This document shows, in pieces, positions 30,402-50,903 of a stretch of DNA of 64,000 bases (position 1 is its first letter; each line of letters opens with the position of its first letter). The translations under genes were made by a program, and so were the position numbers. The notes beneath the pieces were generated by a model. That model ran no database searches, was not told the origin of the DNA, and saw only the letters and a program-made list of their open reading frames with translations. Origin of the DNA: Planctomycetaceae bacterium (GTDB taxonomy: Bacteria > Planctomycetota > Planctomycetia > Pirellulales > UBA1268); assembly GCA_021300535.1 (NCBI GenBank), contig JAJTED010000007.1, positions 5,963 through 69,962 on the forward strand. The letters are read 5' to 3'.

Positions 30402-31763
<1,362 letters not shown>

Positions 31764-32001
31764 CGGTCGTGCGGGGCCTGCATGGCATCGCGGCGACGCG
31801 AGCGGTGCCGCGTGAGGTAGACTCTGCTGCCGACACCGAGCGCAAGCGTTTTGGAACGTCACCCCAGTGCGGGAGGCGCGGGGGTCGGCGAACGCTCGAC
31901 GAGCGTGCGGCCGCCGCGGCCGCAGCGAGGAGACTTTTGCCGCCCCCAAGCCGGCTTGGGCTGACAACGGCCCCCACTTCGTCATGCCCGCCGCCCGAAT
32001 C

Positions 32002-33072
32002 ATGAACCACACCCGCGCCACCTCTACCAGCCTCGTCCGCCCCGACATCGCGGCCCTGGCGGGCTACGTTCCCGGCGAGCAGCCGCAGGGGGGCGACTGG
32101 ATCAAGCTCAACACCAACGAGAATCCCTACCCGCCGTCCCCCGCCGTGGCGCGGGCCGTCGCCGCGGCCGTGGCGGGCCGCACGCTCGCCAAGTATCCCG
32201 ATCCGGTGGCCACGGCGTTCCGCCGGCGGGCCGGGGACGTGCTCGGCGTCGATCCCGACTGGATCATCTGTGGCAACGGCAGCGACGACCTGCTCACGAT
32301 CCTCGTCCGTACCTTCGTCGGGGCGGGGGAGCGGCTGCGGATGCCCTACCCGAGCTACATCCTCTACCGCACGCTCGCCGGCCTCCAGGGGGCGGGGTGC
32401 GACGAGTTTCACTACGCCCGCGACTGGTCGCTCGACGACGGCTTCGCCGCGGCCGCCGCCGACATCCGGCTGGCGATCATCGCCAATCCCAACAGCCCAT
32501 CGGGCACCCTGCTGGCTCCGGATCGTGTCCGTGAGCTCGCCGCTCGGCTGCCCTGCGGCCTGGTCGTGGACGAGGCCTACGGCGACTTCGCCGCCACGAA
32601 CTGCCTCGATCTCGTCCGCGAAAACGAGCGGGTGATCGTCACGCGGTCGTTCAGCAAGTCCTACGCGCTGGCCGGCCTGCGGTTCGGCTTCGCCGTCGCC
32701 CAGCCGACGGTGATCGAGCAGCTGCTCAAGGTGAAGGACTCGTACAACTGCGACACGCTGTCGATCGCCGCCGCCACCGCGGCCATCGACGACCAGGCCT
32801 GGCTGGCGGCGAATCGGGCGCAGATCATCGCCACCCGCCGGCGGCTGACCGACGAGTTGCGGCGGCTCGGATACGACGCCTTGGAAAGCCAGGCGAACTT
32901 CGTGTGGTGCACGCACCCCGAGCGGCCGCACCGGCCCATCTACGAGGCCCTCAAGGCCGCGGGCATCCTCATCCGCTACATGCACTACGCCGGCTGGGGC
33001 GACGGCCTTCGCGTGTCGGTCGGCACCGACGCGGAGATCGACGCCTTCCTCGCCCGCATGCGTTCCCTCTGA
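32002..33072 (+). CDS. hisC: Histidinol-phosphate aminotransferase
   Basis: 'LNTNENPYPPSP', 'NPNSPSG', 'VDEAYGDF' and 'RSFSKSYALAGLRFGF' (PLP lysine). The start is either ATG 32002 or 31984. Confidence 0.93.
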   Translation: MNHTRATSTSLVRPDIAALAGYVPGEQPQGGDWIKLNTNENPYPPSPAVARAVAAAVAGRTLAKYPDPVATAFRRRAGDVLGVDPDWIICGNGSDDLLTILVRTFVGAGERLRMPYPSYILYRTLAGLQGAGCDEFHYARDWSLDDGFAAAAADIRLAIIANPNSPSGTLLAPDRVRELAARLPCGLVVDEAYGDFAATNCLDLVRENERVIVTRSFSKSYALAGLRFGFAVAQPTVIEQLLKVKDSYNCDTLSIAAATAAIDDQAWLAANRAQIIATRRRLTDELRRLGYDALESQANFVWCTHPERPHRPIYEALKAAGILIRYMHYAGWGDGLRVSVGTDAEIDAFLARMRSL

Positions 33073-33109
33073 TCAGGTTTCCCATTTCTCGTTCCCGCCG
33101 GTCCATCCC

Positions 33110-33706
33110 ATGCCCCGCGCCGCCACCGTCTCCCGCAAGACCGCCGAAACCGACATCCGCCTCACGCTCGACCTCGACGGCATCGGCGCCGCCGAGATTC
33201 GCACCGGGATCGGCTTCTTCGACCACATGCTCACGCTGCTCGCCGGGCACTCGCTCTGCGACCTGAAGGTGGCCTGCACGGGCGACCTGCACGTCGACGG
33301 TCACCACACGGTGGAGGACGTGGGCCGGGCCCTGGGTACCGCGCTGGTCGAGTGCCTCGGCGACCGGCGCGGCATCCGCCGCTACGGCCACGCGATCATT
33401 CCTATGGACGAGGCGTTGGCGACCGTGGCCGTCGATCTCGGCGGCCGTGCCGCGTGCGTGTTTGCCGTGGAGTTCCCGGTGCCGACGATCGGCACGTTCG
33501 ACGCCCAGCTCGTGGAGGTGTTTTGGGAGAGTGTGGCCGCCACGGCGGGCATGAACTTCCACGCCGTGCTGCACCACGGCCGCAACGGCCATCACATCGC
33601 CGAGGCGGTCTTCAAGGCCGCGGCCCGCGGTCTCCGTGTCGCTGTCGAGCCCGACCCCCGCCAGCCCGGCATCCCGAGTACGAAGGGCACGCTCACGAGC
33701 AAGTGA
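33110..33706 (+). CDS. hisB: Imidazoleglycerol-phosphate dehydratase
   Basis: 'RKTAETDIRLTLDLDG', 'GFFDHML', 'VDGHHTVEDVGRALG', 'GRNGHHIAEAVFKAAARGL'. 198 aa. Confidence 0.95.
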   Translation: MPRAATVSRKTAETDIRLTLDLDGIGAAEIRTGIGFFDHMLTLLAGHSLCDLKVACTGDLHVDGHHTVEDVGRALGTALVECLGDRRGIRRYGHAIIPMDEALATVAVDLGGRAACVFAVEFPVPTIGTFDAQLVEVFWESVAATAGMNFHAVLHHGRNGHHIAEAVFKAAARGLRVAVEPDPRQPGIPSTKGTLTSK

Positions 33707-33840: not shown

Positions 33841-35814
33841 TCAACGGCCGCCGGGCCGCTTGGCTGGTGGCCCGCCGATGACGCGGATGTCCTTGTCGAG
33901 CGGCAGGCCGGTCTGGGGCCGCTCGCGGAGGATCGCGAGCGCCTGGGGCGATACGGTCCGCAGGGACGACATCGACAGATAGCCGGGTGCGCGGACGACC
34001 ACCCGGGCGATCGCGGCGGAATCGGGGCCCGACAGGTCGGTGATCCCGGGGAACTGGGCGCTGAAGCTCGGGCAGTCGGCCAGCGCGCGGGCCGTTTCCA
34101 CGGACAGCGACTTCAGCCCGGGCATGACGAGCTCCACCCCCACGTGTCGGCCGAGCCAGGCTGCCGCTTCCGGCGTGAGCGACTCGACCGCCAGCAGTCG
34201 CAGACTGCCCCGCTGCCGCCACAGCCCGCGGGCGACGTCCTCGGGAATGTGGCGGAGACCGAGTTCCAGGGTCTCGGTATGCCGACGGAACGCCGCCGCC
34301 GCGTCCGCGTCGAGCGCCACCAGGCCGCGCAGCTGGATCGTGCCGCGTCGGGACGCCAAGGCCTGCGCCACGCCGGTGGTGAGATGGCCGATCCGCGGCA
34401 GCCATCCATCCCACATCTCGACGGCCGCCAGTCCCTGGGCGGCTTCCGGCGAAAGCCGCGCGATCCCGTGGAGCTGGATTTGGGGGCCGGTCTTCCGTCC
34501 CAACGCGTCGGCCGTCTCGGGCCCGATCGATTCCAAGCCGCTCAGGCGCAGCAGCGCATGCGAGCCCATGTACACACCACCGCCACGCGGCGCGTCGGTG
34601 CCGCGACGCAGGCCGTCCTCCGGTTCGAGCAGGGCGGTGGCGGCTACGGCATCGAGCCGGCGAAGATTCGGCAGGTCGAGCCCCTCCTGTTCCCGCCCGA
34701 GTGCCCGGGCGACTTCAGGATCCAGGCGTTCCAAGCCGGAAAGCACGAGGCGGGACGGTCCCTCGGCGAGCAGCCGCGCCTCCTCGGGCGTGACCGCGGT
34801 CACGCCGAGTTCGAGTTCCCCCGGAAAGGCGACCAGTTCCCGCGCGGTCTCCGCCGAGATCTCCGTGATCCCGGCCAGCGCCAGTGACGTGTGGACGCCC
34901 GCCCAGTGCCGGGCCACTTCAGGTGGAAACGACTGCAGTCCGCCGAAGCTGAACATGGTGGCGAACTGGCCTTTGGGCTCGGGCCGCATCAGCAGGGCCG
35001 CCACGTCCGGCGTCAGGGTCGCGACGCCGTCGAGCCAGATGGCACCGGCCGTGCCGGCGTGGATCGCCTGCGCCATGTCGGGCGTGAGCTGCTGGAGGCC
35101 CGAAAGGTCGACGGTCCCCTTGAAGGTGGCCAGCGACCGCAGGGCCGCGACCGAGATTTCGCCGAGGCCCGTGAGCCGGAGAATGCCGCCCTGCGGGTGG
35201 CCGCGGCCCCGGATCGCCGCTGCCACGTTCTCCGGCAGGCTGGTCAGACCGGGGAGCGACACGTCGCGAACCCCGGCCAGGGCCGAGGCGGCTGCCGGTT
35301 CCAGGGCGGTGATCGCGGGAAGCCGCAGGCGGCCGTTGAAACTGCCCAGGCCGCGGGCCGCCTCGGGGGACAGCCGCTCGACGGCGGGCAGATGGAGAAA
35401 ATCCGACCAGTTGTTGGCGACACGCTGCCACTCGGGGGCGCGGGTTTCCGCCAAAAAATCCATGACCCTCAACAGCAGCAGTCCTTGATGCGACGCCCGC
35501 CGCGGTGCGTGGGACAGTTCCTGCCAGAAGCGGTCGATCTGTTCCGGTGTCATCCCGGCGGCCTTGAAGGCGGCTTCGAACTGGGCGTCGCTCGATCCGG
35601 CGAGCGGCGGCTTCGCGGCCTGCTGACTCCGGATCGTGGCCGCGTCCTTGGCGGTGAGCTCAGTGATCGTGAGGAGATCGACCGGCGGCACGGGATTCGC
35701 CGCTCGGGCCAGACCGCACAAGACCGTCATGCCGAGCCAGGCCCCGCAGGCCAGCCAGGGCACGACGGTCGCGGGGCGACGGGCACCCGGCGCAGGCCGC
35801 GGCTGCGGTCTCAT
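33841..35814 (-). CDS. Secreted LRR-like repeat protein
   Basis: 657 aa. N-terminal hydrophobic segment 'VVPWLACGAWLGMTVLCGLARA'. About 20 tandem ~24-25-aa repeats of the form L-x-L-x-G-L-x-x-[LI]-[ST]-P-[ED]-x-A-x-x-L, e.g. 'LDLSGLQQLTPDMAQAI', 'LVLSGLERLDPEVARAL', 'LRLSGLESIGPETADAL'. ATGA overlap with the upstream gene. Confidence 0.8.
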   Translation of the reverse strand: MRPQPRPAPGARRPATVVPWLACGAWLGMTVLCGLARAANPVPPVDLLTITELTAKDAATIRSQQAAKPPLAGSSDAQFEAAFKAAGMTPEQIDRFWQELSHAPRRASHQGLLLLRVMDFLAETRAPEWQRVANNWSDFLHLPAVERLSPEAARGLGSFNGRLRLPAITALEPAAASALAGVRDVSLPGLTSLPENVAAAIRGRGHPQGGILRLTGLGEISVAALRSLATFKGTVDLSGLQQLTPDMAQAIHAGTAGAIWLDGVATLTPDVAALLMRPEPKGQFATMFSFGGLQSFPPEVARHWAGVHTSLALAGITEISAETARELVAFPGELELGVTAVTPEEARLLAEGPSRLVLSGLERLDPEVARALGREQEGLDLPNLRRLDAVAATALLEPEDGLRRGTDAPRGGGVYMGSHALLRLSGLESIGPETADALGRKTGPQIQLHGIARLSPEAAQGLAAVEMWDGWLPRIGHLTTGVAQALASRRGTIQLRGLVALDADAAAAFRRHTETLELGLRHIPEDVARGLWRQRGSLRLLAVESLTPEAAAWLGRHVGVELVMPGLKSLSVETARALADCPSFSAQFPGITDLSGPDSAAIARVVVRAPGYLSMSSLRTVSPQALAILRERPQTGLPLDKDIRVIGGPPAKRPGGR

Positions 35815-38800
35815 TGTCCACCTCCGGCCGGTGTGGCCGATTGCTTGGTGATCATCGCTTCACATGCCGCCCGGGCGCGGCCGGCCGCCGCGGCCAGCGC
35901 GGTGTTCGGCGACCGGGCCAGTTCGGCGAGACGCTCCCCCATCCACGTGATCGAGGCGGCCGCATCGATCGCGGCGTCTGGCGGCGGCTCCAGACGCCGG
36001 GCGAGCATCCGCGCGGCGCGGCGCACGTCGCCGCGACCGGCGGCTCGGGCCGCCGCGTCGAGGATCGCGGGCAGGGGCTCGTCGCCGTAGGGATCGAGTT
36101 CCGCCACGGCCGCGAGCGCGACGAAATCGACCTCGTCGTCGAGCATTCGCACGAGCACGGGCAGCGCGGCGGGCACCACCAGCGCCTGCCTGCCGATCTC
36201 CGCCACGGCGGCCGCCCGCTTCAGGGGATCGGCGCTGTGGGTGTCGACCTCGGGATACTCGACGAGATACGTGTAGGTGGTGCCGAATCGGGAGAGCTGA
36301 CCGCGGGCCGCCGCCGCGACCTGCGGCGGGCCGTCCGCAGCCAGACGGTGCAGCACCTTGGCATCGACCATCCGCAGTGCGTCGAGCCGGCGCAGGACGT
36401 CGATGGCCGCGAGCTGCTCGGTCGGGCGGGAGTTGTCGAGCAGAATCCGCGCGAACGCCTCGTCTCCGTGGCAGCGGAACTGGGGCCGGTTGTCCGAGAC
36501 GAGTCGATCGATCGCGGCCCGTCGTTCCTGGTAGGCCTTCAGGCCAGCCAGCCGCGCAGGCGGCGTATCGGCTCCCAGCGCCGCGACGGCGGCCCGCAGT
36601 TTCGCGTCGCCGCGCATGGCGGCCTCGGCGTCCGCCGGCGTCCGCGGCGGAGTGGCCGCGCCGCGGCGCCGGATCCGGTGCACGGCGTTTTCGTGGAGAT
36701 TGAAGGTGACGAGCGTGTCTCCGAGCCGCTCGATGTTCGTCCACCGCAGGGAGTCGGGCTGTGGCAGATACCAGACGCCGTCGGTGTCGAGGAGCCGGCC
36801 GGGGCCCGCGAACAGATGGCCGTCGAGCACCGCCATGCCCGCCAACACCTCGGGGACGAAGGTCTGTTCCTCGGTGACGAACCCCAGCAGCGGGACGTGT
36901 CCGCAGTCGTCGAGGTCGATCTCGTAGGGCACGCGTGAATACAGCGACCAGTTGGCGACCGCCTTGCGGCCGCCGTCCCAGAACAGACCGCGGATGCTGC
37001 CCATGAGCACCCGCCGCCAGCCACCGTCCCGGAGACTGTGGCACCACAGGCCGCTGCGTGACCGGTCGCCGCCGACGGTCAGCCAGAGCCGATGCCGCAC
37101 CGGATCGGCCAGCATGCCGGTGATCTCGTAGGGCTCGCCGCCATCGAGCTGATGACGCGGCACAACGGCGGCAGTGGAGGCGAACGTCGCGGCGCCGGTG
37201 TCCGGGGCGTAGGTCGCCAGGCCGCGCGGCACGGCCATGTACAGGCGGCCGTCGAGCCAGGCCATCCGTCCGATGCTGTTCGAAGGCAGACCGTCTTGTT
37301 CGCCGACCGCCGTCAGGCCGCGGCCATCGACGACGAACAGGCCGTGCCCGAAGGTGCCGATGAATGCCCGGCCGTCACCGGCGGCCAGCCCGGTGACCGC
37401 CTCCGTCGGCAGGTCGAAGGCCGCCACCTCGGCGAGCAGCCCGCCGCCGGGGCCGCAGCGGGTCAACAGGTGGGGCCAGGCCAGAGCCGCGCCGGGGCCG
37501 CCCCCCTTCGGTGCCGCCGCGGCCCAGAGTAACAGGATCGAGCTGCCCTGGTCGGCCGCCTGGCGATCGACCGCCGCGGCGACGAGCCGCGGTTGGCCGG
37601 GCGGGGCGTTGGTGAACGTCACCGGCTCGATCACGTAATCTGCCCAGGGGCCGACCGGTGGCGGCGGGGGCGGGGCGACCTCGCCCTTGCCGGCCTGCGG
37701 ATCGAAGCGGTTGCCGATGATCCGCCGGTAGCGGGCGATCTGCGACCGCGTCTCGCCGGAATACGCCCGTGCCTTCAGCAACGCCTCGACGCGCCGGTGC
37801 AGGCCGCCGGCCTGGCCCTCGGTCATGACCACCGCATGGGCGAACAGCTCGGGGCTGCGCATCAGGAGACCGCCGTCACCGCTTTGCTCCGCCGTGGCGA
37901 CGAGCGCTTCCGCGTATGCCGTCGCCCGCCCCTCGAAGGCGAGTCGCTGGAGCGCCACGGCGGCGATCTGCGCGACGGTCTTGTAGGCGGCCATCTCGAA
38001 GAATGTCCATGGCGGATCGGCCTTCCGGAAATAGATGTCGAGGATGCGTTCCGCCGCCGTCAGGCTCCGGGCGCCGGGCTGGTTCAGCAGGCACGACAGG
38101 CCGACGATTTGCAGCGCCGGATCGGAGCCGCCGACGAGGCCATCGACGAGCGGCGTGATCTCGTCCAAGGGCGGACGAGCGGGGCGATCCATGACCGCCA
38201 TGAAGAGCGCGGTGTGATACTGATTGGCGAAGGCCTCGCGGGCGATGACGACCCCGGCGTCCTTTTGCCACACCGTGAAGCTGGGGCCGTTCGGCAGTCG
38301 ATCGGCCAGCGCCTCCGTCGCCAGTTCCCGCTGCAGGCCGGTGATGTACCGCATGAACTCGGCGGCGGTCGGACGCGGCGCTCCCGGGACGAGACGGTCG
38401 ACGAGCGCGAGCTGCCGCACGAGGACGAATCCCGTCGTGGGCCGCTCGGCGGCGCGGCGAAACGCGAGGACGCGATCCGCGGTCGCCCGCTCCACGGCAC
38501 GGATGCGGTCGCGGATCTCCGCCTCCTCTGCCGACGCGGGGGCCGGCGTCGGCGACCAGATGCTGTGCAGCAGTTCGACGGGAAACAGCGCCTCCCAGGC
38601 CAGGGATTCGGTCGTCCGCTCGTAGAAGTCGCCGATCAACTCCGCCTGTCGCAGCCGCGCCTGCGCCACGTCCACGGGCCGCGCATCGGCCGGCAGGGCC
38701 GCCTGGCTGAACGCGTTCGCCAGGTCGAACGTTTCCCGGCAGGGATGGAGAACGTAGGCCGCTTCGGCCAGCCGGGACGCCTGCGGCCCGTCGCCGATCC

Positions 38801-39725
38801 GGTCGAGCCGCCGTGCCCGTTCGAGGAGCAGTTTCGCCTCCGCGGTCGGGCTGGCGGTCTCGGGCTCGACCGCGCCGGCCAACATGTCGGCCAACGCCGC
38901 CGCGATCGCATCGCGGGCCGCGCCGGTCTTGGCGGGCGTGCTGACGGTCCGCTCCCGCCGCTTCCCGTCCTTGAGCGGCAGCAGGGCCAGTGCGATCACG
39001 AACGTGTCCCCCTCGCGCCGCAGGCTACCCTCGAGCAGCAAGGCCGACGCCCGGAGATCGAGCTCGGTGCCGGTCAGGTCGCGCTCGGTGGTGAGTCGGC
39101 GGAGCTGTTCCCGCTCGAGGACGACGACGTCGGGAAGCCGCTGCAGATCCTGCGCGGCGAACACCGACAGCGCCCGGGCGGTGGCCACGGTGGAGCCCGT
39201 CTCCTCCTCGCTCCGCAGGCCGACGATTCCGACCAGCCGGCGGCTCTCCGCGGCCGCGCGGAGTTTTCGCAGGCCCGTGCGCAGGTCCGCCAGCAGCACT
39301 GCCCGGTCGGCGAGCAGGTCGGCGGCCGCCCATTCGCCGTCCGCGAGCCGAATGCCGGTGCGGGTCTCCACCACCCGCACCCGCACCCGCGGCGGCGTCT
39401 CCGCGGAGCCCGCGTCGAGCATCACGATGGCGTCGGCCGCGAGCAGCTGGCCGAGTTTCATGCCCGCCGCGGCGTCGCCGGCAGCGGCCAACTTCAGTTC
39501 ATCGACCACACGGGCGACGGCCTGCCGCTCCACGAGCCGCACGCCCGCGTCGCTCGACAGGTCGGTCGTGAGCAGATCGGCGAGCGGGGCCCGCGTCGCC
39601 GCGGTGGGTACGATGGCCACCGTCGGGGGGGGAGGCTCCGCGGCCGCTGCACGGGAAACCCATGCCAGGCCGCAGGCCGCGATCGAGGCCAGGCAAGCCG
39701 CACGGTAAACGGAAACGATGTGCAT
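35811..39725 (-). CDS. Giant secreted multidomain protein: tandem CsgG/LpoB-like modules, helical region, Reg_prop-like beta-propeller, HEAT-like repeats
   Basis: 1304 aa with signal peptide 'ACLASIAACGLAWVSRAAAA'. Module 1 reads 'VAIVPTAATRAPLADLLTTDLSSDAGVRLVERQAVARVVDELKL'. Module 2 reads 'VGIVGLRS...VVVLEREQLRRLTTERDL'. A propeller-type motif 'DGLPSNSIGRMAWLDGRLYMA' is encoded at 37237-37295. The C-terminus is HEAT-like: 'ALPVLVRMLDDEVDFVALAAVAELDPYGDEPLPAILDAA'. Confidence 0.85.
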   Translation of the reverse strand: MHIVSVYRAACLASIAACGLAWVSRAAAAEPPPPTVAIVPTAATRAPLADLLTTDLSSDAGVRLVERQAVARVVDELKLAAAGDAAAGMKLGQLLAADAIVMLDAGSAETPPRVRVRVVETRTGIRLADGEWAAADLLADRAVLLADLRTGLRKLRAAAESRRLVGIVGLRSEEETGSTVATARALSVFAAQDLQRLPDVVVLEREQLRRLTTERDLTGTELDLRASALLLEGSLRREGDTFVIALALLPLKDGKRRERTVSTPAKTGAARDAIAAALADMLAGAVEPETASPTAEAKLLLERARRLDRIGDGPQASRLAEAAYVLHPCRETFDLANAFSQAALPADARPVDVAQARLRQAELIGDFYERTTESLAWEALFPVELLHSIWSPTPAPASAEEAEIRDRIRAVERATADRVLAFRRAAERPTTGFVLVRQLALVDRLVPGAPRPTAAEFMRYITGLQRELATEALADRLPNGPSFTVWQKDAGVVIAREAFANQYHTALFMAVMDRPARPPLDEITPLVDGLVGGSDPALQIVGLSCLLNQPGARSLTAAERILDIYFRKADPPWTFFEMAAYKTVAQIAAVALQRLAFEGRATAYAEALVATAEQSGDGGLLMRSPELFAHAVVMTEGQAGGLHRRVEALLKARAYSGETRSQIARYRRIIGNRFDPQAGKGEVAPPPPPPVGPWADYVIEPVTFTNAPPGQPRLVAAAVDRQAADQGSSILLLWAAAAPKGGGPGAALAWPHLLTRCGPGGGLLAEVAAFDLPTEAVTGLAAGDGRAFIGTFGHGLFVVDGRGLTAVGEQDGLPSNSIGRMAWLDGRLYMAVPRGLATYAPDTGAATFASTAAVVPRHQLDGGEPYEITGMLADPVRHRLWLTVGGDRSRSGLWCHSLRDGGWRRVLMGSIRGLFWDGGRKAVANWSLYSRVPYEIDLDDCGHVPLLGFVTEEQTFVPEVLAGMAVLDGHLFAGPGRLLDTDGVWYLPQPDSLRWTNIERLGDTLVTFNLHENAVHRIRRRGAATPPRTPADAEAAMRGDAKLRAAVAALGADTPPARLAGLKAYQERRAAIDRLVSDNRPQFRCHGDEAFARILLDNSRPTEQLAAIDVLRRLDALRMVDAKVLHRLAADGPPQVAAAARGQLSRFGTTYTYLVEYPEVDTHSADPLKRAAAVAEIGRQALVVPAALPVLVRMLDDEVDFVALAAVAELDPYGDEPLPAILDAAARAAGRGDVRRAARMLARRLEPPPDAAIDAAASITWMGERLAELARSPNTALAAAAGRARAACEAMITKQSATPAGGGQ

Positions 39726-39848
39726 GGTGACGGAAGGCGGGGGAACGCCGAAGGGCCGACACCTTCGTAAGACCGGCGACCTGTGCCGATCTTGGCCCCG
39801 GCTCCGTGACGGGTCAGACTAGCCGGGCTGGTCGGGGCACCGCAACCC

Positions 39849-40478
39849 GTGGATCGCGAACCGGTGGGACCCAAGATGCGGCCGTCCGGCCCGTCTCATG
39901 GATTGACACGGAGCGGTATCGGTTTGGAAACGTCCGACGAGCAACTCGTGGCCGCCTGGCGGCAGGCCGGCGACCGCGGGGCGCTCGATGAGCTCGCCGT
40001 CCGGCACCTGACCACGGTCCGCCGCATGATCCATTCGATGATCCTCAACGATGCGGCCGCGGACGATCTGGCGCAGGACGTGCTCCTCCGCGCCTTTCGC
40101 AGCCTCGACGACTTTCAGGGCCGGTCCAAGTTCACGACCTGGCTGTACCGGATCGCCATGAACACGGTCCACGACGCGCTCGACCGCAGGCGACGTTCGC
40201 CCATCGACGATCGGGCCGAACTGCCCCGGGACGCGGCCGTGCGGGACGCGGGCGTCGGGGCGGAAGTCGAGCGGGACGAGTTCGACGGGGCCGTGGGCCG
40301 GGCGCTGCAGGCCCTCCCGCCGAAACTCCGCGCCGCCATCGTGCTCGTGGCGATCGAGGAACTCGACCCGGCCGCAGCCGCGCGGATCGAGGGCTGCACG
40401 CGGGCCACCATCTACTGGCGGCTGCACGAAGCCCGCAAGCGGCTCGCCCACGCCCTGCGGGAGCAGGTGAAACCATGA
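39849..40478 (+). CDS. RNA polymerase ECF-type sigma-70 factor
   Basis: Region 2: 'DDLAQDVLLRAFRSLDDFQGRSKFTTWLYRIAMNTVHDALDRRRR'. Region 4: 'LPPKLRAAIVLVAIEELDPAAAARIEGCTRATIYWRLHEARKRL'. The true start may be the Met at 39876. Confidence 0.92.
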   Translation: MDREPVGPKMRPSGPSHGLTRSGIGLETSDEQLVAAWRQAGDRGALDELAVRHLTTVRRMIHSMILNDAAADDLAQDVLLRAFRSLDDFQGRSKFTTWLYRIAMNTVHDALDRRRRSPIDDRAELPRDAAVRDAGVGAEVERDEFDGAVGRALQALPPKLRAAIVLVAIEELDPAAAARIEGCTRATIYWRLHEARKRLAHALREQVKP

Positions 40479-41263
40479 CGCCCGACCCGCGACAGCCGTC
40501 GCGATCCGGCCCCGACATCGACGTCCGCCTTCGCGAGTGGCGCCGCCGCCGGGACGTGGCGGCGGATGCAGCCGGCCGCGTCAGGCGCATCGCAGCGGCG
40601 GTCCGCGCCGCCGACGTGGCTGCGATCCGTCCGGCCATCGCTCCGCCCGTCCGCTGGGTTGAGCGGACCGGCTGGTTCGCTGCGGGCCTCGCGGCGGCCG
40701 CCATGGTGGCATGCGTGGCGTGGCGAAATGGAGCCAGCGACGAGACGGCGAACTGGCCGCCGAGCGTGCGGTTCGCCGCCGCCGACATCGCCGCCCGTGC
40801 CGAGGTCTTGGCCGGCATGGAGCAGACGTTCGCGGGGCGGCTCGCGTGGGTTGCGGAGCACGATCAGACGGTGACCGTGGGGCTGGCGGACGGCTCGGCC
40901 GCGGCCACGTCGGTCGCCGTGCGAATCGTCGTGCTCACCCGGCGTGGCCCGGCCGCGCGGTGGGAGCCGGCGTGGCAGACGGACGTCGTTGTCCGCGACG
41001 AGCAGGTCGTGGACGTCGCCGCCGGCGCCCACGGCGACGGGCGGCTCAAACTGTGGGCCCATTGCCTGCCCGACGGGGCGATCGCGGTGGACGGTGAGTT
41101 GACGCTCGCGATGCATGCGGTGCCGCTGCGGGCTTCCTACGGCGGCGTCCAGAAGGCGGGCCTCCCGCGCCGGGTGACCGGCGACGGCGCGGCGGACGTC
41201 GAGTGGCAGGTGATCCAGACGGTGGTGCCACTTCGTCCTGCGACCGGGAAGGAGGTCGGATGA
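40475..41263 (+). CDS. Putative anti-sigma factor (single-pass membrane protein)
   Basis: 262 aa. ATGA overlap with the sigma factor stop. Arg-rich cytoplasmic N-terminus, one TM helix 'WFAAGLAAAAMVACVAW', and a ~175-aa extracytoplasmic domain. No zinc-binding HxxxCxxC motif. The call rests on position and topology only. Confidence 0.6.
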   Translation: MTPDPRQPSRSGPDIDVRLREWRRRRDVAADAAGRVRRIAAAVRAADVAAIRPAIAPPVRWVERTGWFAAGLAAAAMVACVAWRNGASDETANWPPSVRFAAADIAARAEVLAGMEQTFAGRLAWVAEHDQTVTVGLADGSAAATSVAVRIVVLTRRGPAARWEPAWQTDVVVRDEQVVDVAAGAHGDGRLKLWAHCLPDGAIAVDGELTLAMHAVPLRASYGGVQKAGLPRRVTGDGAADVEWQVIQTVVPLRPATGKEVG

Positions 41264-42342
41264 CACTCCGGGGTGCAGTTCTCCGCGGCGTCGCTGCGGC
41301 GAGCCTTGCGATCGTCGTGGCCGACGTCGCAGCCGGTGACGATGCCCTCGTGGTGGCGCCGTCCGATGCCCGCACCAACTACTTCGCCGGCCGCGCGGCG
41401 GACTGTGGCACCGTCATCCGGGGGGGCGCCGCCGTCGAGGGCAGCCTTGCATGGGTGCTGGCGGTCGGGGGCCGCTCCCTGGCGAACGGCGCCGTGGCTG
41501 TGCGGCATCCCGGCCGTGGCGCCACGAACGCCATGGTCACGGTGCCCTTTCCCGCCGGTCGCGAGGGCGTGGTGGCGGAGGCCACGTTGACGACGGTTCT
41601 GGCCGACGCCGCCGGCAACCGGCTCGGCACGGCGACGCGGCCGGTGCGGATTTTTCCGGCCGATCCGTTTTTCGACCGCCGGCGCTGGCTCGAAGGGCTG
41701 CGGATCGCGGTCGTCGATCCGGACGGCGGTACCGAGAAGCTGCTCACCGCCGCGGGAGTGCCGCTGCTGTTCGCGCGGGCCGACGCCGACATCGCCGCGC
41801 TGCGGCCGCAGGTGGTGATCGTCGGCGAGGGGTTGGCGTGGGCCGAGCATCCGCGGCTGGCAGCGGATCTCGTCGGCCTCTGCGGCCGGGGCACGAACGT
41901 GCTTTGTCTCGCCCCCGCAACCGGAGCGTTCCCGCTGCCGGACCCTGCCGACACGATCGGCGACGGCGTCGCCGACCGGCTCGCGCTGCGCCAGGCCGAC
42001 GTCGTCGGCGACCTCGACGGGCGGCTCGATTGGCGGGATTGGTCGGCGCGCGGCTCCACCGTGGTCAGCCGCCTGGCGATCGTCGCCGACCGCGAGGCGG
42101 TGGTGGCGCGGGCCGGCGGCACGCCCCGCGGCTGGCCGTGGCTCGAGGCGCGGTTTGCCGACCGCGAGTCAGGCCGGCCGGCGGGCACGTTCGTCGTCTG
42201 CGGCCTCGGCATCGTCGCCCACTGGGAGGAGACGCCGGCAGCCCGCTACCTTTTCGCGGCGCTCCTCGCCCGCCTCACGCCCCCGGCCGCCGACGCCGGC
42301 CCGTCACCAGATCCCCGTTCCCATCAGGAGAGCCCCCGATGA
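41260..42342 (+). CDS. Hypothetical secreted protein
   Basis: 360 aa. GGAGG (41251-41255) lies upstream of ATG 41260, which overlaps the previous stop (ATGA). Signal-like N-terminus 'LRGVAAASLAIVVADVAAG'. No motif recognised. Confidence 0.7.
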   Translation: MTLRGAVLRGVAAASLAIVVADVAAGDDALVVAPSDARTNYFAGRAADCGTVIRGGAAVEGSLAWVLAVGGRSLANGAVAVRHPGRGATNAMVTVPFPAGREGVVAEATLTTVLADAAGNRLGTATRPVRIFPADPFFDRRRWLEGLRIAVVDPDGGTEKLLTAAGVPLLFARADADIAALRPQVVIVGEGLAWAEHPRLAADLVGLCGRGTNVLCLAPATGAFPLPDPADTIGDGVADRLALRQADVVGDLDGRLDWRDWSARGSTVVSRLAIVADREAVVARAGGTPRGWPWLEARFADRESGRPAGTFVVCGLGIVAHWEETPAARYLFAALLARLTPPAADAGPSPDPRSHQESPR

Positions 42343-43397
42343 TCATCGTGTCCCTTCGGCCTGCAGTCGTCCGCGTCCTCAAATGCGTCGTTTCCCTGGT
42401 CGCCGTCGTGCTCGCGGCGGCACCCGCGGTCGCCGAGCAGGCGGCCGCGACGCCACTCGTGCCTGTGGCGCTCCTGCCCTTCCAAGATCGCGCCACCGAG
42501 GGGGCCGCGCCCCGTCCCGGCGGGCCGGTCGGCGACGGCGGCAAGGTCACCGACCTCCTGTTCGCGGAGCTGGTCGTCGAGCCCGCGCTGATGCTCATCG
42601 AGCGTGAGGACATCCGCAAGCTGCTCGACGAGCAGGAATTGAACCTCACGGGTCTGGCCAACCCCGCCACGGCGACCCGCGTCGGTCAGCTCACCGGCGC
42701 CAAGATCCTGATCGCCGGCTCCGTGTTCCGCGTCGACAACTCGCAGTATCTCGTCGCCAAGATCATCGGCACCGAGACCAGCCGCGTGCTCGGCGCGAGC
42801 GTCAAGGGCACGGCCCGCGACGACCTCGGAGGTCTGGCCGACCGTCTGGCCACGGAGATCGTCAAGGTGGTGACCGAGCGGGGGGGCGAGCTGCTGCCCA
42901 AGGTCGTGACCCGCGACGACCGGCTCGCGGATCTGAAAAAGGCGTTGCCGGCGGGGGAGCGGCCGACCCTGTTCGTGGAAATCAAGGAGCAGCACATCGC
43001 CCCGGTCGTGGCCATCGTCGCCGGGCCGGGGGGCCTGGTCGTCATCGATCCCGCGGCGGAGACGGAGATGACGCTGTTCGCGAAGGAGGCCGGCTTCGCG
43101 GTCGTCGACCCCAAGGAAGGCAAGCGGTCCGCGGCCGCGGTGCTCGTGCTCGGCGAGGCGATCAGCGAGCCCGCCGTGCGGCACGGGAACCTGATCTCGG
43201 CGAAGGCCAGGCTGGAGGTGAAGGCGGTCGATCAGGCCACGGGCAAGGTGCTGGCCATCGATCGGCAGACGACCGTGGCCACCGACCTCACCGAGCAGAT
43301 CGCCGCGAAGACGGCGCTGCAGGAGGCGTCGGCCTTGATCGCCGAGCGGCTGCTGCCGAAGATCGCGGGCTTCAGGCCGACGGAGCGGGCGCCCTGA
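42339..43397 (+). CDS. Secreted CsgG/LpoB/FlgO-like domain protein
   Basis: 352 aa with an ATGA overlap with the previous stop. Signal peptide 'VVSLVAVVLAAAPAVA'. 'VALLPFQDR...KVTDLLFAELVVEPALMLIEREDIRKLLDEQELNLTG...RVGQLTGAKILIAGSVF' matches the module found twice in the 1304-aa protein. Confidence 0.8.
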   Translation: MIIVSLRPAVVRVLKCVVSLVAVVLAAAPAVAEQAAATPLVPVALLPFQDRATEGAAPRPGGPVGDGGKVTDLLFAELVVEPALMLIEREDIRKLLDEQELNLTGLANPATATRVGQLTGAKILIAGSVFRVDNSQYLVAKIIGTETSRVLGASVKGTARDDLGGLADRLATEIVKVVTERGGELLPKVVTRDDRLADLKKALPAGERPTLFVEIKEQHIAPVVAIVAGPGGLVVIDPAAETEMTLFAKEAGFAVVDPKEGKRSAAAVLVLGEAISEPAVRHGNLISAKARLEVKAVDQATGKVLAIDRQTTVATDLTEQIAAKTALQEASALIAERLLPKIAGFRPTERAP

Positions 43398-43631
43398 GCC
43401 CGCCCGGCCCCGCGGAGCCGGCGTGAGCCTGGGTGCTCGCGGGACTGCCGGGAAGCCCGAATCGTCAGATGAGGGAATCCGCGTCGCTCCACCCGCAGCC
43501 AGGATGGCGAAGTGCAGCGGCGACTTTGGCCGCCCCCGAAGCCGGTGCTCCATCAAAGTCGAATGGGCGTAACCTACTCGCGGCTTGTGCTGTTGCGGGT
43601 TCTCCAGTCGTGGGCTCGGTTTGACATGCGC

Positions 43632-44266: not shown

Positions 44267-45013
44267 CTACGAGTCGCCGGTGTGGCTCTCCCGGTCGTCC
44301 GCGGGATTCTCCGTCACGCTCTCGATTCGCCCGTCCCGCAGCCGCACCACCCGGCGGGCCCGGGCGGCGATGTCGGGCTCGTGGGTCACCAGCACGATCG
44401 TACGGCCGGCGCGGTTGAGGGCGGCGAGCATGTCCATGATCTCGTGGCTGGTCGCCGTGTCGAGATTGCCCGTCGGCTCGTCGGCGAGGATGAGCGCGGG
44501 ATTGTTGACCAGGGCCCGCGCGATCGCCACCCGCTGCTGCTGACCGCCGGAAAGCTGGGTCGGCCGGTGGCCGAGTCGATCGGCCAAGCCCACCAGCCGG
44601 GCCAGCGCCAGGCAGCGGCCGTGGTCGCCCGGCTGCCTGGGCCGATAGGCCAGCGGCAGCGCGATGTTTTCCACCACGCTCAGTTGCGGGATCAGGTTAT
44701 ACGATTGGAAAACGAAGCCCAGCGTGCGGCCGCGAACGCGGGAGAGCGCCGCATCGTCGAGCCGGGCCACATCCCGCCCCGCCAGCACGTAGCTTCCGGA
44801 GGTCGGCCGGTCGAGGCAGCCGAGCACGTTCAAGAGCGTGCTCTTGCCCGAGCCCGACGACCCCATGATCGCCACGAAGTCGCCGCGCCGCAGATCGAGC
44901 GACACGCGGTCGAGGGCCCGCACCTCCTGCCCCTCGAGCCGGTAGAGCTTCGACACGTCGCGGATGCTGGCCACGACGTCCGCTCCCTGTGCGACGGCGG
45001 CCGGTTCACTCAT
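44267..45013 (-). CDS. ABC transporter ATP-binding protein (MacB/LolD-type)
   Basis: Walker A 'GSSGSGKSTLLN', Q-loop 'FVFQSYNLIP', signature 'LSGGQQQRVAIARAL', Walker B 'ILADEPTGNLD', 'VLVTHE'. Confidence 0.93.
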   Translation of the reverse strand: MSEPAAVAQGADVVASIRDVSKLYRLEGQEVRALDRVSLDLRRGDFVAIMGSSGSGKSTLLNVLGCLDRPTSGSYVLAGRDVARLDDAALSRVRGRTLGFVFQSYNLIPQLSVVENIALPLAYRPRQPGDHGRCLALARLVGLADRLGHRPTQLSGGQQQRVAIARALVNNPALILADEPTGNLDTATSHEIMDMLAALNRAGRTIVLVTHEPDIAARARRVVRLRDGRIESVTENPADDRESHTGDS

Positions 45014-46331
45014 GGCGAAGCGCCTCGATCGGGTCCAGGGCGGCCGCCCGCCGGGCTGGATAGAGGCCGAACACGATCCCTAAGCCGACTGAGATCGCAA
45101 ACGCGACCGCGATCGACCAGGGCACGAGCGGCGGGTCGAGGCCGCGGATGTCGGGCGGCAGCGCGGCCCAGACCCGCGGCAGCAACGACTCCACGCCCCG
45201 GAGTGCCAGCGCCACCGCCGGCCGGCAGAGAAACCCGGCCGCCACGCCGAGCAGGCCGCCGGCGCCGGAGAGCACGATCGTCTCGCAGAGAAACTGCCGG
45301 ATGATCTCCCCCCGCGTGGCCCCCAGGGCCCGCCGGATGCCGATCTCCCGCGTCCGCTCGGTGACCGTGGCGAGCATGATGTTCATGATCCCGATCCCTC
45401 CCACGAGCAACGAGATGCCGGCGATGACGAGGAGCAGGACGTTGAACATCATCCGCACCGTCTTCGCCTGCTCGAGCAGTTCCTGGGGCACGACCACGGC
45501 GTAGTCCTCGGTCTTGTGATACCGCTTGAGCAGGTCGCGAATCATGTCGGCGGTCGCCGGCACCCGCGCCAGGTCGGCGAGGACGACCGTGATCTGGTCG
45601 AGCTCCACCGTCTCGGCGGTCCAGGAGCCCTGCTGCTCGGCGACAATCCGATCTCCGATCCGGGCCCGGAACGTGGAGAGCGGGAGGTAGACATCGCGGT
45701 CGAACTGCCGCGCCGCGAGGCTGCCGCCGATGGCCGCCGCAGCGGTTCGCGGGGCGGCCACGCCGACCACCACGTAGAACTCCTGTCCCACCAGCACGGC
45801 CGCGCCGAGCGGATCGTCGATGGGAAACAGCCGTTCGGCCACCTCGTGGGCCAGCACGACCACGTTGTCGCAGCGGTCGAGGTCATGGTCGGAGAGCCCG
45901 CGGCCGCGGGCGATCGCGAGCTTGTTGGCCGCGAAGTAGTCCGGCGTGCAGCCGATCACGACGCCGTCGAGTGCCCGCTCGCCGCACCGCACCTCCCGGC
46001 TGATCTGCCGCAGCGGCACCGCCCGCACCAGTCCCGGAACGTTGGTGCGGATCCGGTCCTCATCGGCCCGCAGCAGACCGTAGGCGATGCCGAACCCATC
46101 GCTGGCTTTCTCGTTCGGGTCGGAGGGCGGCTTGATGCTCCGCACGATGATGCTCGTGGCGCCGAGGGCCTCGATCTGCCGCTGAGCCTGGATGGCGACC
46201 CCCTCACCCATGGCCACCAACCAGATCACGGCCGTGACGCCGATCAGGATCCCGAGCACCGCCAGCGCCGAGCGGAGCTTGTGCAGCAGCAGGCTGCGAA
46301 CCCCGGCCCGCAACTGCTGCCAGATGCTCAC
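45006..46331 (-). CDS. ABC transporter permease (MacB-like periplasmic core + FtsX domain)
   Basis: 441 aa. N-terminal TM 'ALAVLGILIGVTAVIWLV', a large periplasmic domain, and a C-terminal FtsX-type bundle with 'TERTREIGIRRALGATRGEIIRQFL'. 8-nt overlap with the ATPase gene. Confidence 0.9.
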   Translation of the reverse strand: MSIWQQLRAGVRSLLLHKLRSALAVLGILIGVTAVIWLVAMGEGVAIQAQRQIEALGATSIIVRSIKPPSDPNEKASDGFGIAYGLLRADEDRIRTNVPGLVRAVPLRQISREVRCGERALDGVVIGCTPDYFAANKLAIARGRGLSDHDLDRCDNVVVLAHEVAERLFPIDDPLGAAVLVGQEFYVVVGVAAPRTAAAAIGGSLAARQFDRDVYLPLSTFRARIGDRIVAEQQGSWTAETVELDQITVVLADLARVPATADMIRDLLKRYHKTEDYAVVVPQELLEQAKTVRMMFNVLLLVIAGISLLVGGIGIMNIMLATVTERTREIGIRRALGATRGEIIRQFLCETIVLSGAGGLLGVAAGFLCRPAVALALRGVESLLPRVWAALPPDIRGLDPPLVPWSIAVAFAISVGLGIVFGLYPARRAAALDPIEALRHE

Positions 46332-47872
46332 GACCGCGCGGCGGCCGGTGTCCGCAGGCCCGGATTCGCCCCTCCGTCGCCATGGTGGTCCCTGGTTGGG
46401 TTGCCATCGCCCTCGGGCAGAGCGTCGCCGAGCACCGCCCGGGGATTGAGGAGCACCACCTCCCCGGGCTCGAGGCCCGACGTGATCTCGACAAACGCCT
46501 CGCTGGCCTCCCCCAGCTTCACGGTCCGCCGCTCGACTCCCCCGGCCTTCTGCACGGCACAGACATGGCTGCCCCGCTGCTCGGCGACCGCCGCCACGGG
46601 CACGGCGATCACGGCCTCGAGTGCGGCGACCACGATCTCCACCTCCGCCGTCAGGCCCGGCCGCAACAGCGGCGACTGGTCGTCTATCTTGACCCGGACC
46701 TCGTACCGCTTGGCGGTGTCCATGTATCCGGTGGAGTTGGGCCGGGTGGCGACTTTCGTCACACTGCCGGTGAACTGGTTGCCCTGCACATCGATCCGGG
46801 CCCGCATGCCCGGGCGGATCTTCTCGACCCGCGATTCATGCACGCCCACGTCCGCCCGCATGGTGCTCAAGTCGGGCAACTGCAGGATCGTCTGGGCCTC
46901 GTTGACCTTGGCTCCGATCTTGATGCCGCCGTCGCGATCCCAGCGTGGCGTCGGCGGATAGATCACGACCCCGTCCTTGGGGGCCGTAATCCGGCACTTC
47001 GCCAGTTGCTGTTCAAGCCGTTCGAGCTTCAACGTCTCGAGCGTCAGTGCCGCCGTCTCGCTCTCCTTCTTGGCGGCATTGGCATCCCGCTTGCTTTCGA
47101 GTTCCGTCATCATCTTCGGCTTCGTAAACCGTTCGAGGACGTCGAGGGCGATCGTGGCGGTGTCTTCGTCGAGCTTCGCCCGCTCGGCTGCCGACTTGTG
47201 CTTCTCGAGCTCCTGCGGCGTGATGTAGCCCTTGCGAAACATCTTCTCGAAGTGGGTGACGAGGTTGCGGTTCGCCTGGAGCCGCTCGCGGGCCCCGGTG
47301 AGATCCGACCGCAGCTTGTGCTGCTCCTTGCGAAAGGTGCCCTCGGCATACTCCTCGACGGCGATGACCGCCGCCGCATGGTCCTTCTCGGCCTGGATCT
47401 GCGCGGCCCGCGCCTTCTCCAGCGCGATTTTCTGGGCGGTGAGATCTTCCGAAATCTTCGCCGAGTCGAGCACGACAATCGTGTCGCCAACCTTCACCTG
47501 GGAGCCATCGGCCACGAGCTCGATGATCGTCGAGCCCCCCCTGACATCGCAGCGGATGTCGACGTTTTCGTCGCTGGACAGCGTCGCGGTCTCGGTGACG
47601 GAGATCGTCAGGTCTTGCCGGGCGACGGTATGGGAGGGGTGATTGGCAAACGGGTCACGGGCGGCGCCGGAATCGAAGCGGGCCAGAATCGCGGGCGTGG
47701 CCGCCGCCAGTCCGCCGGCCGCGGCCAGGATCGCCAGCAGCCGCCACGGCATCCGCCGGTGTGCCGCCGGCTCGGCCACGGGCGGGCCGTCGAGGATCGC
47801 GGCGATGGCGTTCGCGGGGATCGCCACCGCGGGTCGCGACTGCACGCTCGATTCCGCGATCGCATCTGCCAT
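46328..47872 (-). CDS. Efflux transporter periplasmic adaptor (HlyD/MacA family)
   Basis: 514 aa. TM anchor 'WRLLAILAAAGGLAAA', lipoyl motif 'ELVADGSQVKVGDTIVVLD', a long coiled coil, then 'ITAPKDGVVIY' and the beta-barrel/MPD region. 4-nt overlap with the permease gene. Confidence 0.9.
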   Translation of the reverse strand: MADAIAESSVQSRPAVAIPANAIAAILDGPPVAEPAAHRRMPWRLLAILAAAGGLAAATPAILARFDSGAARDPFANHPSHTVARQDLTISVTETATLSSDENVDIRCDVRGGSTIIELVADGSQVKVGDTIVVLDSAKISEDLTAQKIALEKARAAQIQAEKDHAAAVIAVEEYAEGTFRKEQHKLRSDLTGARERLQANRNLVTHFEKMFRKGYITPQELEKHKSAAERAKLDEDTATIALDVLERFTKPKMMTELESKRDANAAKKESETAALTLETLKLERLEQQLAKCRITAPKDGVVIYPPTPRWDRDGGIKIGAKVNEAQTILQLPDLSTMRADVGVHESRVEKIRPGMRARIDVQGNQFTGSVTKVATRPNSTGYMDTAKRYEVRVKIDDQSPLLRPGLTAEVEIVVAALEAVIAVPVAAVAEQRGSHVCAVQKAGGVERRTVKLGEASEAFVEITSGLEPGEVVLLNPRAVLGDALPEGDGNPTRDHHGDGGANPGLRTPAAARS

Positions 47873-47905
47873 GGGGGGCCTTTCGGAGGCGTTGCGAGGC
47901 TGCGT

Positions 47906-50731: not shown

Positions 50732-50903
50732 AAGCGGGGCGAAACTTTACCGGATATGCAGGCTGGGCGGCGGGGGTGGTTTGCGGTGCTCGGCCGTAGG
50801 CTTTTCTCAGGCCGCACAGGCCTCCCAGCCGATATTTTCGGCATGGTGTGTGTGGCCGACTCCGCCCGGGGTCCATGCGCACGAAAGCCCGGTACACGCC
50901 CCG

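Follow-up and report, generated by a model that had tools for sequence, protein, structure and literature searches.

Organization of the locus

The window analysed here is a 64-kb stretch of DNA (64,000 nucleotides; positions 5,963 to 69,962 of contig JAJTED010000007.1, assembly GCA_021300535.1) from a Planctomycetaceae bacterium. On its minus strand, a gene (hereafter the big gene) encodes a 1304-residue multidomain protein (the big protein) in which a signal peptide is followed by two CsgG/LpoB-like modules, a tetratricopeptide repeat (TPR)-like helical region, a seven-bladed beta-propeller and an armadillo (ARM)/HEAT-like alpha-solenoid (Table 1). The stop codon of the big gene overlaps, as ATGA, the start of a gene for a 657-residue protein. 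Divergent from the big gene is a four-gene operon, chained by ATGA overlaps, that encodes an extracytoplasmic function (ECF) sigma factor, a 262-residue candidate anti-sigma factor, an exported protein of unknown family (P360) and an exported CsgG-like protein (C350). The domain combination of the big protein is the signature of a large, undescribed Planctomycetota family comprising hundreds of clusters at 50% identity, and the sigma factor, the single-pass anti-sigma candidate, P360, C350 and one to three large proteins of this family form a conserved cluster. What is new here is this widespread family and its place in a conserved ECF-controlled envelope cluster; the ECF module itself is known, and the accessory proteins are novel.

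Table 1. Coordinates of the big gene, its domains, the candidate promoters and the adjoining genes in the window
Feature	Position	Strand	Basis or remark
Big gene, 1304-aa exported multidomain protein	35811..39725	-	Open reading frame (ORF), codon-position GC, full-length homologs
Predicted signal peptide, residues 1-28	39642..39725	-	Cleavage near AAA/AE read from sequence
CsgG/LpoB-like module 1, residues ~29-157	39255..39641	-	Pfam CsgG; model confidence low there
CsgG/LpoB-like module 2, residues ~158-288	38862..39254	-	hhalign to module 1, Pfam, model
TPR-like alpha-helical region, residues ~289-682, Pro-rich linker at end	37680..38861	-	Model, Foldseek
Seven-bladed beta-propeller, remotely Reg_prop-like, residues ~693-1022	36660..37649	-	Model, Foldseek, family profile
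GLPSNSI motif within propeller	37275-37295	-	
ARM/HEAT-like alpha-solenoid, residues ~1030-1298	35832..36638	-	Model, sub-cut-off HEAT_2, ARM match
Downstream partner gene, 657 aa, signal peptide and leucine-rich repeat (LRR)-like repeats	33841..35814	-	Repeats, ATGA overlap
ECF-type motif AAGAT-N14-GGTCT facing big gene	39770..39793	-	-10-like end 44 nt from ATG
ECF-type motif AAGAT-N14-CGTCT facing sigma operon	39873..39896	+	
ECF sigma factor, likely TTG 39924, 184 aa	39924..40478	+	Pfam, NCBIfam; ORF itself opens at GTG 39849
Anti-sigma candidate, 262 aa	40475..41263	+	ATGA overlap with sigma, transmembrane segment, conserved alignment
P360, exported ~360-aa protein of unknown family	41260..42342	+	ATGA overlaps, signal peptide
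C350, exported 352-aa CsgG-like protein	42339..43397	+	Pfam CsgG

A single gene and its protein family

We considered that the large ORF might be an artefact, either several genes fused in one frame or a frame left open by chance where the GC content is high. Many long spurious ORFs arise in high-GC DNA, and at one related locus (related loci are given L-numbers such as L001 and L002, and homologs of the big protein the P-numbers P0003, P0004 and P0006) the homolog of the big gene, in L011, was split by the gene call into two genes (297 and 954 residues). However, the G+C content of the big gene by codon position is 0.76/0.54/0.88, which is a coding pattern that the overlapping ORFs on the opposite strand do not share (the surrounding DNA is 72% GC). 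Furthermore, four homologs are collinear with the big protein over its full length (93, 68, 68 and 68% identity), a fifth (P0006; 1060 residues, 34% identity) stops just past the beta-rich region, and confident domain models span the entire protein. Because of the coding pattern and the collinear full-length homologs, we conclude that the big gene, which starts with ATG, is a single gene coding for one exported protein, as the earlier note on this DNA had read it; an artefact has a vanishingly small probability and was ruled out. The split call in L011 (4046-7960) could represent a frameshift, a pseudogene or an assembly error. The named relatives of the big protein come from metagenome-assembled genomes (MAGs) of Planctomycetota, assigned to Pirellulales, 'Planctomycetaceae UBA4655' and Pirellulaceae.

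How widespread is this architecture? A profile of residues 290-1110 of the big protein, searched against 1.84 billion representative proteins, retrieved 663 representative clusters at E <= 1e-3, 247 at E <= 1e-10 and 42 at E <= 1e-30. Most family members are approximately 1020-1090 residues long and match the profile at residues ~300-1010; those that are named at source are annotated as 'hypothetical protein' or 'CsgG/HfaB family protein'. We sampled 44 full-length members for domain scans and a family alignment; 43 of them have an N-terminal CsgG match, and the family consensus retains the motifs of both modules. The domain combination, which had been singled out as unusual in the earlier note, is therefore not an oddity, because the same architecture marks the whole family.

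The HEAT-like tail is confined to the subfamily of the window and is absent from P0006 and from typical members; other members of the family either have the propeller as their last domain or contain LRR, Laminin_G_3, DUF1349 or ankyrin domains. In L002 (826-4770, minus strand) and L012 (13365-17291, plus strand), for example, paralogs combine the same N-terminal modules with a fused C-terminal LRR domain. The varied C-terminal ends of the paralogs suggest a variable binding specificity. Outside Planctomycetota, a Kiritimatiellia MAG (L008, 10001-10213) encodes a 72-residue stretch that is 45% identical to two propeller blades, a resemblance restricted to the propeller.

Domain architecture of the big protein

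The sole hydrophobic segment of the big protein spans residues 3-21 and is followed by AAAAE. A hydrophobic N-terminus is common to all of the homologs, and the signal peptide noticed earlier was upheld on these grounds; there is no transmembrane segment in the protein, in which the signal peptide is the only hydrophobic stretch. The N-terminus includes a lipobox-like 'IAAC', but the cysteine (Cys19) is replaced by Y, R or A in P0003, P0004 and P0006, so that a lipoprotein was ruled out. The big protein is thus predicted to be a soluble exported protein with an ordinary signal peptide.

The Pfam CsgG model (PF03783) matches residues 46-101 with 23 bits, against a gathering cut-off of 20.8, and the N-terminal 261 residues alone reach 28.7 bits in two stretches, whereas module 2 alone gives E = 0.051. 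When the sub-alignments of the two modules from the 44 family members were compared by hhalign, they matched each other with 91.8% probability (E = 7.5e-7), and because of this profile-profile match we regard the modules as a tandem duplication. Might they represent an outer-membrane secretion channel of the CsgG type to which accessory domains have been fused? The score above the gathering cut-off, together with the annotation of some relatives as 'CsgG/HfaB family protein', would favour such a channel. However, only positions ~38-97 of the 210 in the CsgG profile are matched and its C-terminal half is unmatched; the modules are only about 125 residues long, and the model of module 2 (pLDDT 76-89) shows a compact beta-alpha-beta-alpha-beta-beta-beta-alpha domain with no long hairpins; the lipobox cysteine is not conserved; and no curli or holdfast genes (csgE/F/A/B, hfaA/D) were detected by Pfam among the cluster neighbours. 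On the basis of the partial profile match, the short modules and the missing lipobox, we rejected an identity as CsgG pores, and a channel of this type seems scarcely credible. In addition, the L012 paralog exceeds the cut-off of the LpoB model, and single family members touch the LpoB, TolB_N and DUF3280 models; Foldseek searches with the N-terminal half of the big protein returned no match to CsgG, LpoB or TolB. The tandem CsgG/LpoB-like modules of the earlier note stand, but as probable modules of the LpoB/TolB-N/CsgG-core type and not as CsgG pores.

This arrangement resembles TolB, LpoB and the periplasmic core of CsgG in the match to the CsgG model and, with regard to TolB, in placing an alpha/beta module ahead of a propeller. 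It differs from them in that the modules are in tandem, in that ~390 residues of helices separate them from the propeller, and in the lack of a lipobox and of pore hairpins; moreover, the propeller is seven-bladed and Reg_prop-like, whereas that of TolB has six blades. The intervening region, which had been described as about 400 residues of helices, was indeed modelled as entirely helical (residues ~293-674, pLDDT ~80-89), and Foldseek gave weak matches (E about 1e-2) to the TPR proteins LGN, Tom70 and intraflagellar transport complex A (IFT-A).

In the model of residues ~697-1020, about 28 strands form seven blades (mean pLDDT 75). Foldseek matched this propeller to WD40 proteins and, with E 1e-7 to 1e-6, to BamB, to PorZ and to BT4663 and BT4673, two sensors of Bacteroides (5e-7 to 2e-6 for these sensors). 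The Pfam Reg_prop model (PF07494) had no match in the whole big protein, none in the isolated propeller at E <= 10 and none in the 44 family members at E <= 0.01. The profile of these 44 members, however, matched BT4673 (3ott/3va6) with E = 5e-7 over ~175 positions and BT4663 (4a2l) with E = 9e-5 in the Protein Data Bank (PDB), in alignments that run through the 'eGlPsnev...aWldgrLY' blades and the 'GLPsN' motif. The family profile and the fold comparison thus indicate a remote homology to Reg_prop sensor propellers; the Reg_prop propeller claimed in the earlier note is retained in this remote sense, without a match to the Pfam model itself.

BT4663 and BT4673 belong to the hybrid two-component systems (HTCS) of Bacteroides, which share with the big protein a periplasmic location, the seven-bladed propeller and the G-L-P-x-N blade motif. 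In the Foldseek comparison, the TM-score is ~0.35 (normalised to the two-domain query) and the root-mean-square deviation (rmsd) ~5.3 Å. Unlike these sensors, the big protein has one propeller instead of two; it also lacks the membrane anchor, and a Pfam scan found no kinase, HisKA/HATPase_c, receiver or Y_Y_Y domain in it, in line with the earlier remark that no kinase is attached. The regulator encoded next door is an ECF sigma factor.

The C-terminal region (residues ~1030-1297) was modelled as a stack of ~16 helices. The Pfam HEAT_2 score is 21 bits, under the cut-off of 27.7, and designed armadillo-repeat proteins match over ~50 residues (E = 3e-4), which is compatible with the HEAT-like repeats described earlier. 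A propeller followed by an alpha-solenoid is the order that defines the 'membrane coat-like' proteins of the Planctomycetes-Verrucomicrobia-Chlamydiae (PVC) group, one of which, gp4978, has been localised to the paryphoplasm (PMC2799638). We therefore considered that the big protein might be a periplasmic protein of this class that shapes or tethers membranes. It is a planctomycete protein with the order that fits this definition, and for its C-terminal half Foldseek ranks highest a set of eukaryotic proteins from coats, the nuclear pore and IFT (Vps18/HOPS, WDR11, nucleoporins and IFT-A; E 4e-9 to 1e-7). These matches, however, have low TM-scores (~0.3) and an rmsd of 25-33 Å; the solenoid occurs only in the subfamily of the window and is absent from typical members; the propeller is Reg_prop-like by sequence and is not N-terminal, being preceded by ~690 more residues; and the signal peptide and the ECF-linked context are further differences. 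We consider a coat-like role very improbable.

Conservation of the gene cluster

The same architecture was sought at other loci together with its neighbouring regulators, and the ECF sigma cluster was found to recur at many of them. More than 526 relatives came from a metagenome scan anchored on C350, and we kept 80 loci, which were annotated with hidden Markov models built for this analysis. P360 lies directly upstream of C350 in all 31 informative loci, and an ECF sigma factor and a 262-like protein are encoded upstream of C350 in 22 and 21 of these, respectively. Of 38 loci, 35 encode one to three large proteins with the tandem modules, and in 31 such a protein comes directly after C350; the stricter helical-plus-propeller profile was positive in 16 of the 38. 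P360, C350 and the large protein or proteins therefore make up the most tightly linked unit, usually headed by the sigma factor and the anti-sigma candidate. In L013, L015 and L024, this unit occurs without an adjacent sigma gene.

Relative to the large gene, the four operon genes are found in at least three orders: the window, L004, L011, L002 and L017-L019 have the big gene divergent from sigma, L009 and L010 have it upstream of sigma on the same strand, and L007, L012, L014 and L016 have it downstream, again on the same strand. Several loci (e.g., L002, L007, L012 and L014) contain two or three large paralogs. The sigma factor, the 262-residue protein, P360 and C350 of the window are 98-99% identical to those of L011, whereas the big protein is only 85% and the 657-residue partner 88% identical; in L007, the core is 74-88% identical to that of the window, yet the large paralogs are different ones. 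The large proteins thus change in sequence, or are replaced, more rapidly than the regulatory core.

The earlier note had placed an ECF sigma pair next to the big gene. The sigma factor is confirmed by Pfam (Sigma70_r2, E = 2.8e-16; r4_2, E = 3.2e-10) and by NCBIfam (TIGR02937, 90 bits against a cut-off of 42.9), and its linkage is conserved across the gene orders described above, but it does not form a stand-alone pair, since it is part of the four-gene operon. Its start is likely TTG 39924 rather than GTG 39849, because of the position of the promoter motif, a GGAG at 39910 (10 nt upstream) and the 184-residue gene call in L002. The motif is located inside the extension that would start at the GTG (39849-39923), and the nucleotide conservation in that extension is probably regulatory and not coding. 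The 262-residue protein consists of a cytoplasmic N-terminus of ~65 residues, a transmembrane segment (residues 65-83) and a periplasmic domain of ~170 residues; it gave no hit at all in Pfam, NCBIfam or PDB searches, including searches with a seven-member alignment, and so no recognisable anti-sigma domain such as zf-HC2, RskA or FecR. P360 gave nothing usable in Pfam, NCBIfam or PDB-sequence searches, and C350 matches positions 10-103 of the 210 in the Pfam CsgG profile (E = 2.9e-12). Matches of C350 to pentatricopeptide designer proteins, of which no stretch passes on its own, were treated as compositional, and this identity was rejected. A 648-residue ORF at 41451..43397 (+) is an over-extension, the first ~296 codons of which are an out-of-frame Arg-rich sequence.

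The 657-residue protein contains LRR-like repeats of ~23-24 residues ('LxLxGLxxLxPExAxAL') and has no Pfam or PDB-sequence match, nor a usable one in NCBIfam. Its gene follows the genes of all HEAT-bearing homologs, whereas no other member of the family has it downstream. Because of this strict co-occurrence and of the LRR domain fused to the paralogs, there is a weak hint that the partner may bind the HEAT tail; between the separate LRR-like protein and the fused LRR domain there is no detectable sequence similarity.

A candidate promoter motif shared by the cluster genes

The motif AAGAT-N14-NGTCT occurs exactly twice in the window, as compared with 0.13 copies expected by shuffling, and both copies fall within the 198 bp between the divergent genes, each directed towards the gene that it faces. 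In the four closest loci, conserved blocks are found on both sides of this intergenic region, and ten aligned upstream regions, six from the big-gene side and four from the sigma side, share CCAAGAT-N14-SGTCTnATGGA. In 20 of the 45 sigma-carrying sequences examined, among them those of distant low-GC loci, the strict motif lies upstream of sigma at the same offset. Related loci totalling 0.98 Mb contain 36 copies, of which 32 are just upstream of cluster genes: 21 precede sigma, nine precede large family genes (two of these in L007 and L011), one precedes P360 (in the sigma-less L024) and one precedes C350 (L084). On the big-gene side, the motif is kept in L004, L011, L002, L007, L018 and L019, and it is retained before the big gene in L001, where a rearrangement linked to an insertion sequence has removed the sigma neighbourhood. 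In L024, the motif (8856-8879) is located 40 nt upstream of P360 with no adjacent sigma gene, which suggests control in trans by a sigma factor encoded elsewhere.

In its geometry (AAG, 16 nt, then (C/G)GTCT or TCTnA), the motif resembles the consensus of RpoE/AlgU-type ECF promoters, GAACTT-N16-TCTGA. The simplest reading is that it is the cognate promoter of the ECF sigma factor of the cluster. Because the same ECF-type motif precedes both the sigma operon and the big gene, the big gene and the 657-residue gene are very probably transcribed by this sigma factor, that is, they are predicted members of its regulon. On this evidence, the only direction of coupling that is visible in the sequence would be from the sigma factor to the big gene.

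Proposed role of the large proteins

What might the large proteins do in such a cluster? With a confidence that falls a little short of even, we propose that the big protein is one of the large subunits, soluble and periplasmic, of a conserved ECF-controlled envelope cluster and acts as a scaffold and receptor for a ligand or polymer. The LpoB/TolB-N/CsgG-type modules would dock the big protein to an envelope partner, most likely C350 and P360, because these are the most constant neighbours of the big gene. The TPR-like arm, the propeller, the ARM/HEAT tail and the LRR-like partner would bind a ligand or polymer in the periplasm, for which a glycan, as with the sensors of Bacteroides, is one possibility, and the occupancy of the big protein would be relayed to the periplasmic domain of the 262-residue anti-sigma candidate. 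Such a system would induce its own receptor, in a positive feedback like that of FecA.

The cluster resembles FecI/FecR/FecA and the Bacteroides sigma/anti-sigma/SusC-like systems in that an ECF sigma factor and a single-pass partner are accompanied by a gene for an extracytoplasmic protein with the sigma factor's type of promoter. Because the big gene carries this promoter type, the putative sensor would also be a regulon member. The earlier note had suggested that the signal is handed from the propeller to the anti-sigma factor; such a handover would be compatible with the sigma-type promoter before the big gene, because FecA is likewise both sensor and regulon member. In contrast to FecI/FecR/FecA, the cluster lacks a FecR domain in the 262-residue protein and a TonB-dependent transducer, the candidate receptor is soluble and periplasmic, and P360 and C350, its two conserved exported proteins, have no counterpart there.

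Several points weigh against the receptor proposal. First, the contacts of the big protein with the anti-sigma candidate and with a ligand are ones that we infer; the anti-sigma role of that candidate is argued from gene position and membrane topology, and the promoter has been deduced from sequence. Second, the presence of one to three paralogs per cluster and the clusters without sigma genes would fit a structural or assembly machine at least equally well. Third, Reg_prop-like propellers are not confined to sensors, as the non-sensor protein PorZ illustrates, and the Pfam Reg_prop model has no match in the big protein or in the sampled family members.

These points lead to an alternative in which the big protein is purely an output. 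The large proteins, P360 and C350 would form an envelope structure or an assembly or secretion apparatus (e.g., for a surface fibre, a holdfast or a wall polymer) that the sigma factor merely switches on; the anti-sigma factor would sense something else, and the big protein would be outside the signalling. The motif places the big gene in the sigma regulon, as this alternative would predict, and the closest linkage is that among P360, C350 and the large proteins, which persists without an adjacent sigma gene in L013, L015 and L024 and involves one to three large paralogs per cluster. CsgG, LpoB and TolB-N-type modules are, in addition, typical of envelope assembly factors. On the other hand, the cluster contains no look-alike of a channel, an enzyme or a fibre subunit, the part of the profile that forms the pore is missing from its CsgG-like proteins, and the nearest sequence relatives of the propeller among solved structures are sensor domains. 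We regard a role as pure output as possible but somewhat doubtful.

A more far-reaching version of the receptor proposal, which we think unlikely, is that the cluster represents a new ECF cell-surface signalling device. Soluble periplasmic receptors, each with a Reg_prop-type propeller on a TPR arm, would use their LpoB/CsgG-like modules to dock to a platform of P360 and the CsgG-like protein, and would act on an anti-sigma factor of a novel single-pass kind. They would stand in both for the histidine kinase of hybrid two-component systems and for the TonB-dependent transducer of FecA-type systems, and interchangeable paralogs (with HEAT tail and LRR partner, fused LRR or LamG ends) would set the ligand specificity.

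Planctomycetota carry unusually many ECF sigma factors, of which, to our knowledge, almost none has a known input or output. The cluster is widespread and has a sharply defined candidate promoter, and it should therefore provide a directly testable regulon; it also provides a candidate sensor that lacks a kinase but has a propeller related to sensor domains known to bind glycans. Signalling from the large proteins to the anti-sigma factor, if it takes place, would add a third means by which a ligand-binding propeller in the periplasm is coupled to transcription. Should these proteins be outputs only, the cluster would still define an unknown conserved envelope structure in a phylum with a poorly understood envelope. 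In literature searches combining ECF, CsgG and Planctomycetes, CsgG and Planctomycetes, or Reg_prop and ECF, we found no description of the cluster, and CsgG is not mentioned in the main text of the ECF reclassification paper.

Surroundings of the cluster in the window

On one side, hisD, a hisC-like aminotransferase gene and hisB (30402-33706, plus strand) converge on the 3′ end of the 657-residue gene and mark the edge of the cluster. On the other side, a MacB-type ABC efflux operon (44267-50746, minus strand) encodes an ATPase, a MacB/FtsX permease, an HlyD-family adaptor and a 947-residue OEP-domain protein, and it is adjoined by a BBP7 porin gene (50631-52391, plus strand). These genes are typical planctomycete envelope content and are not linked to the cluster in other loci. 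After the C350 gene, between 43400 and 44300, the GC falls to ~0.66. In L011 (1-302), the gene after C350 has the same first 38 codons as in the window (43469-43582) and then diverges. We considered a rearrangement artefact at the low-GC stretch after 43400 and ruled it out, because L017 (96% identity) is collinear with the window; the divergence in L011 is a strain-level difference.

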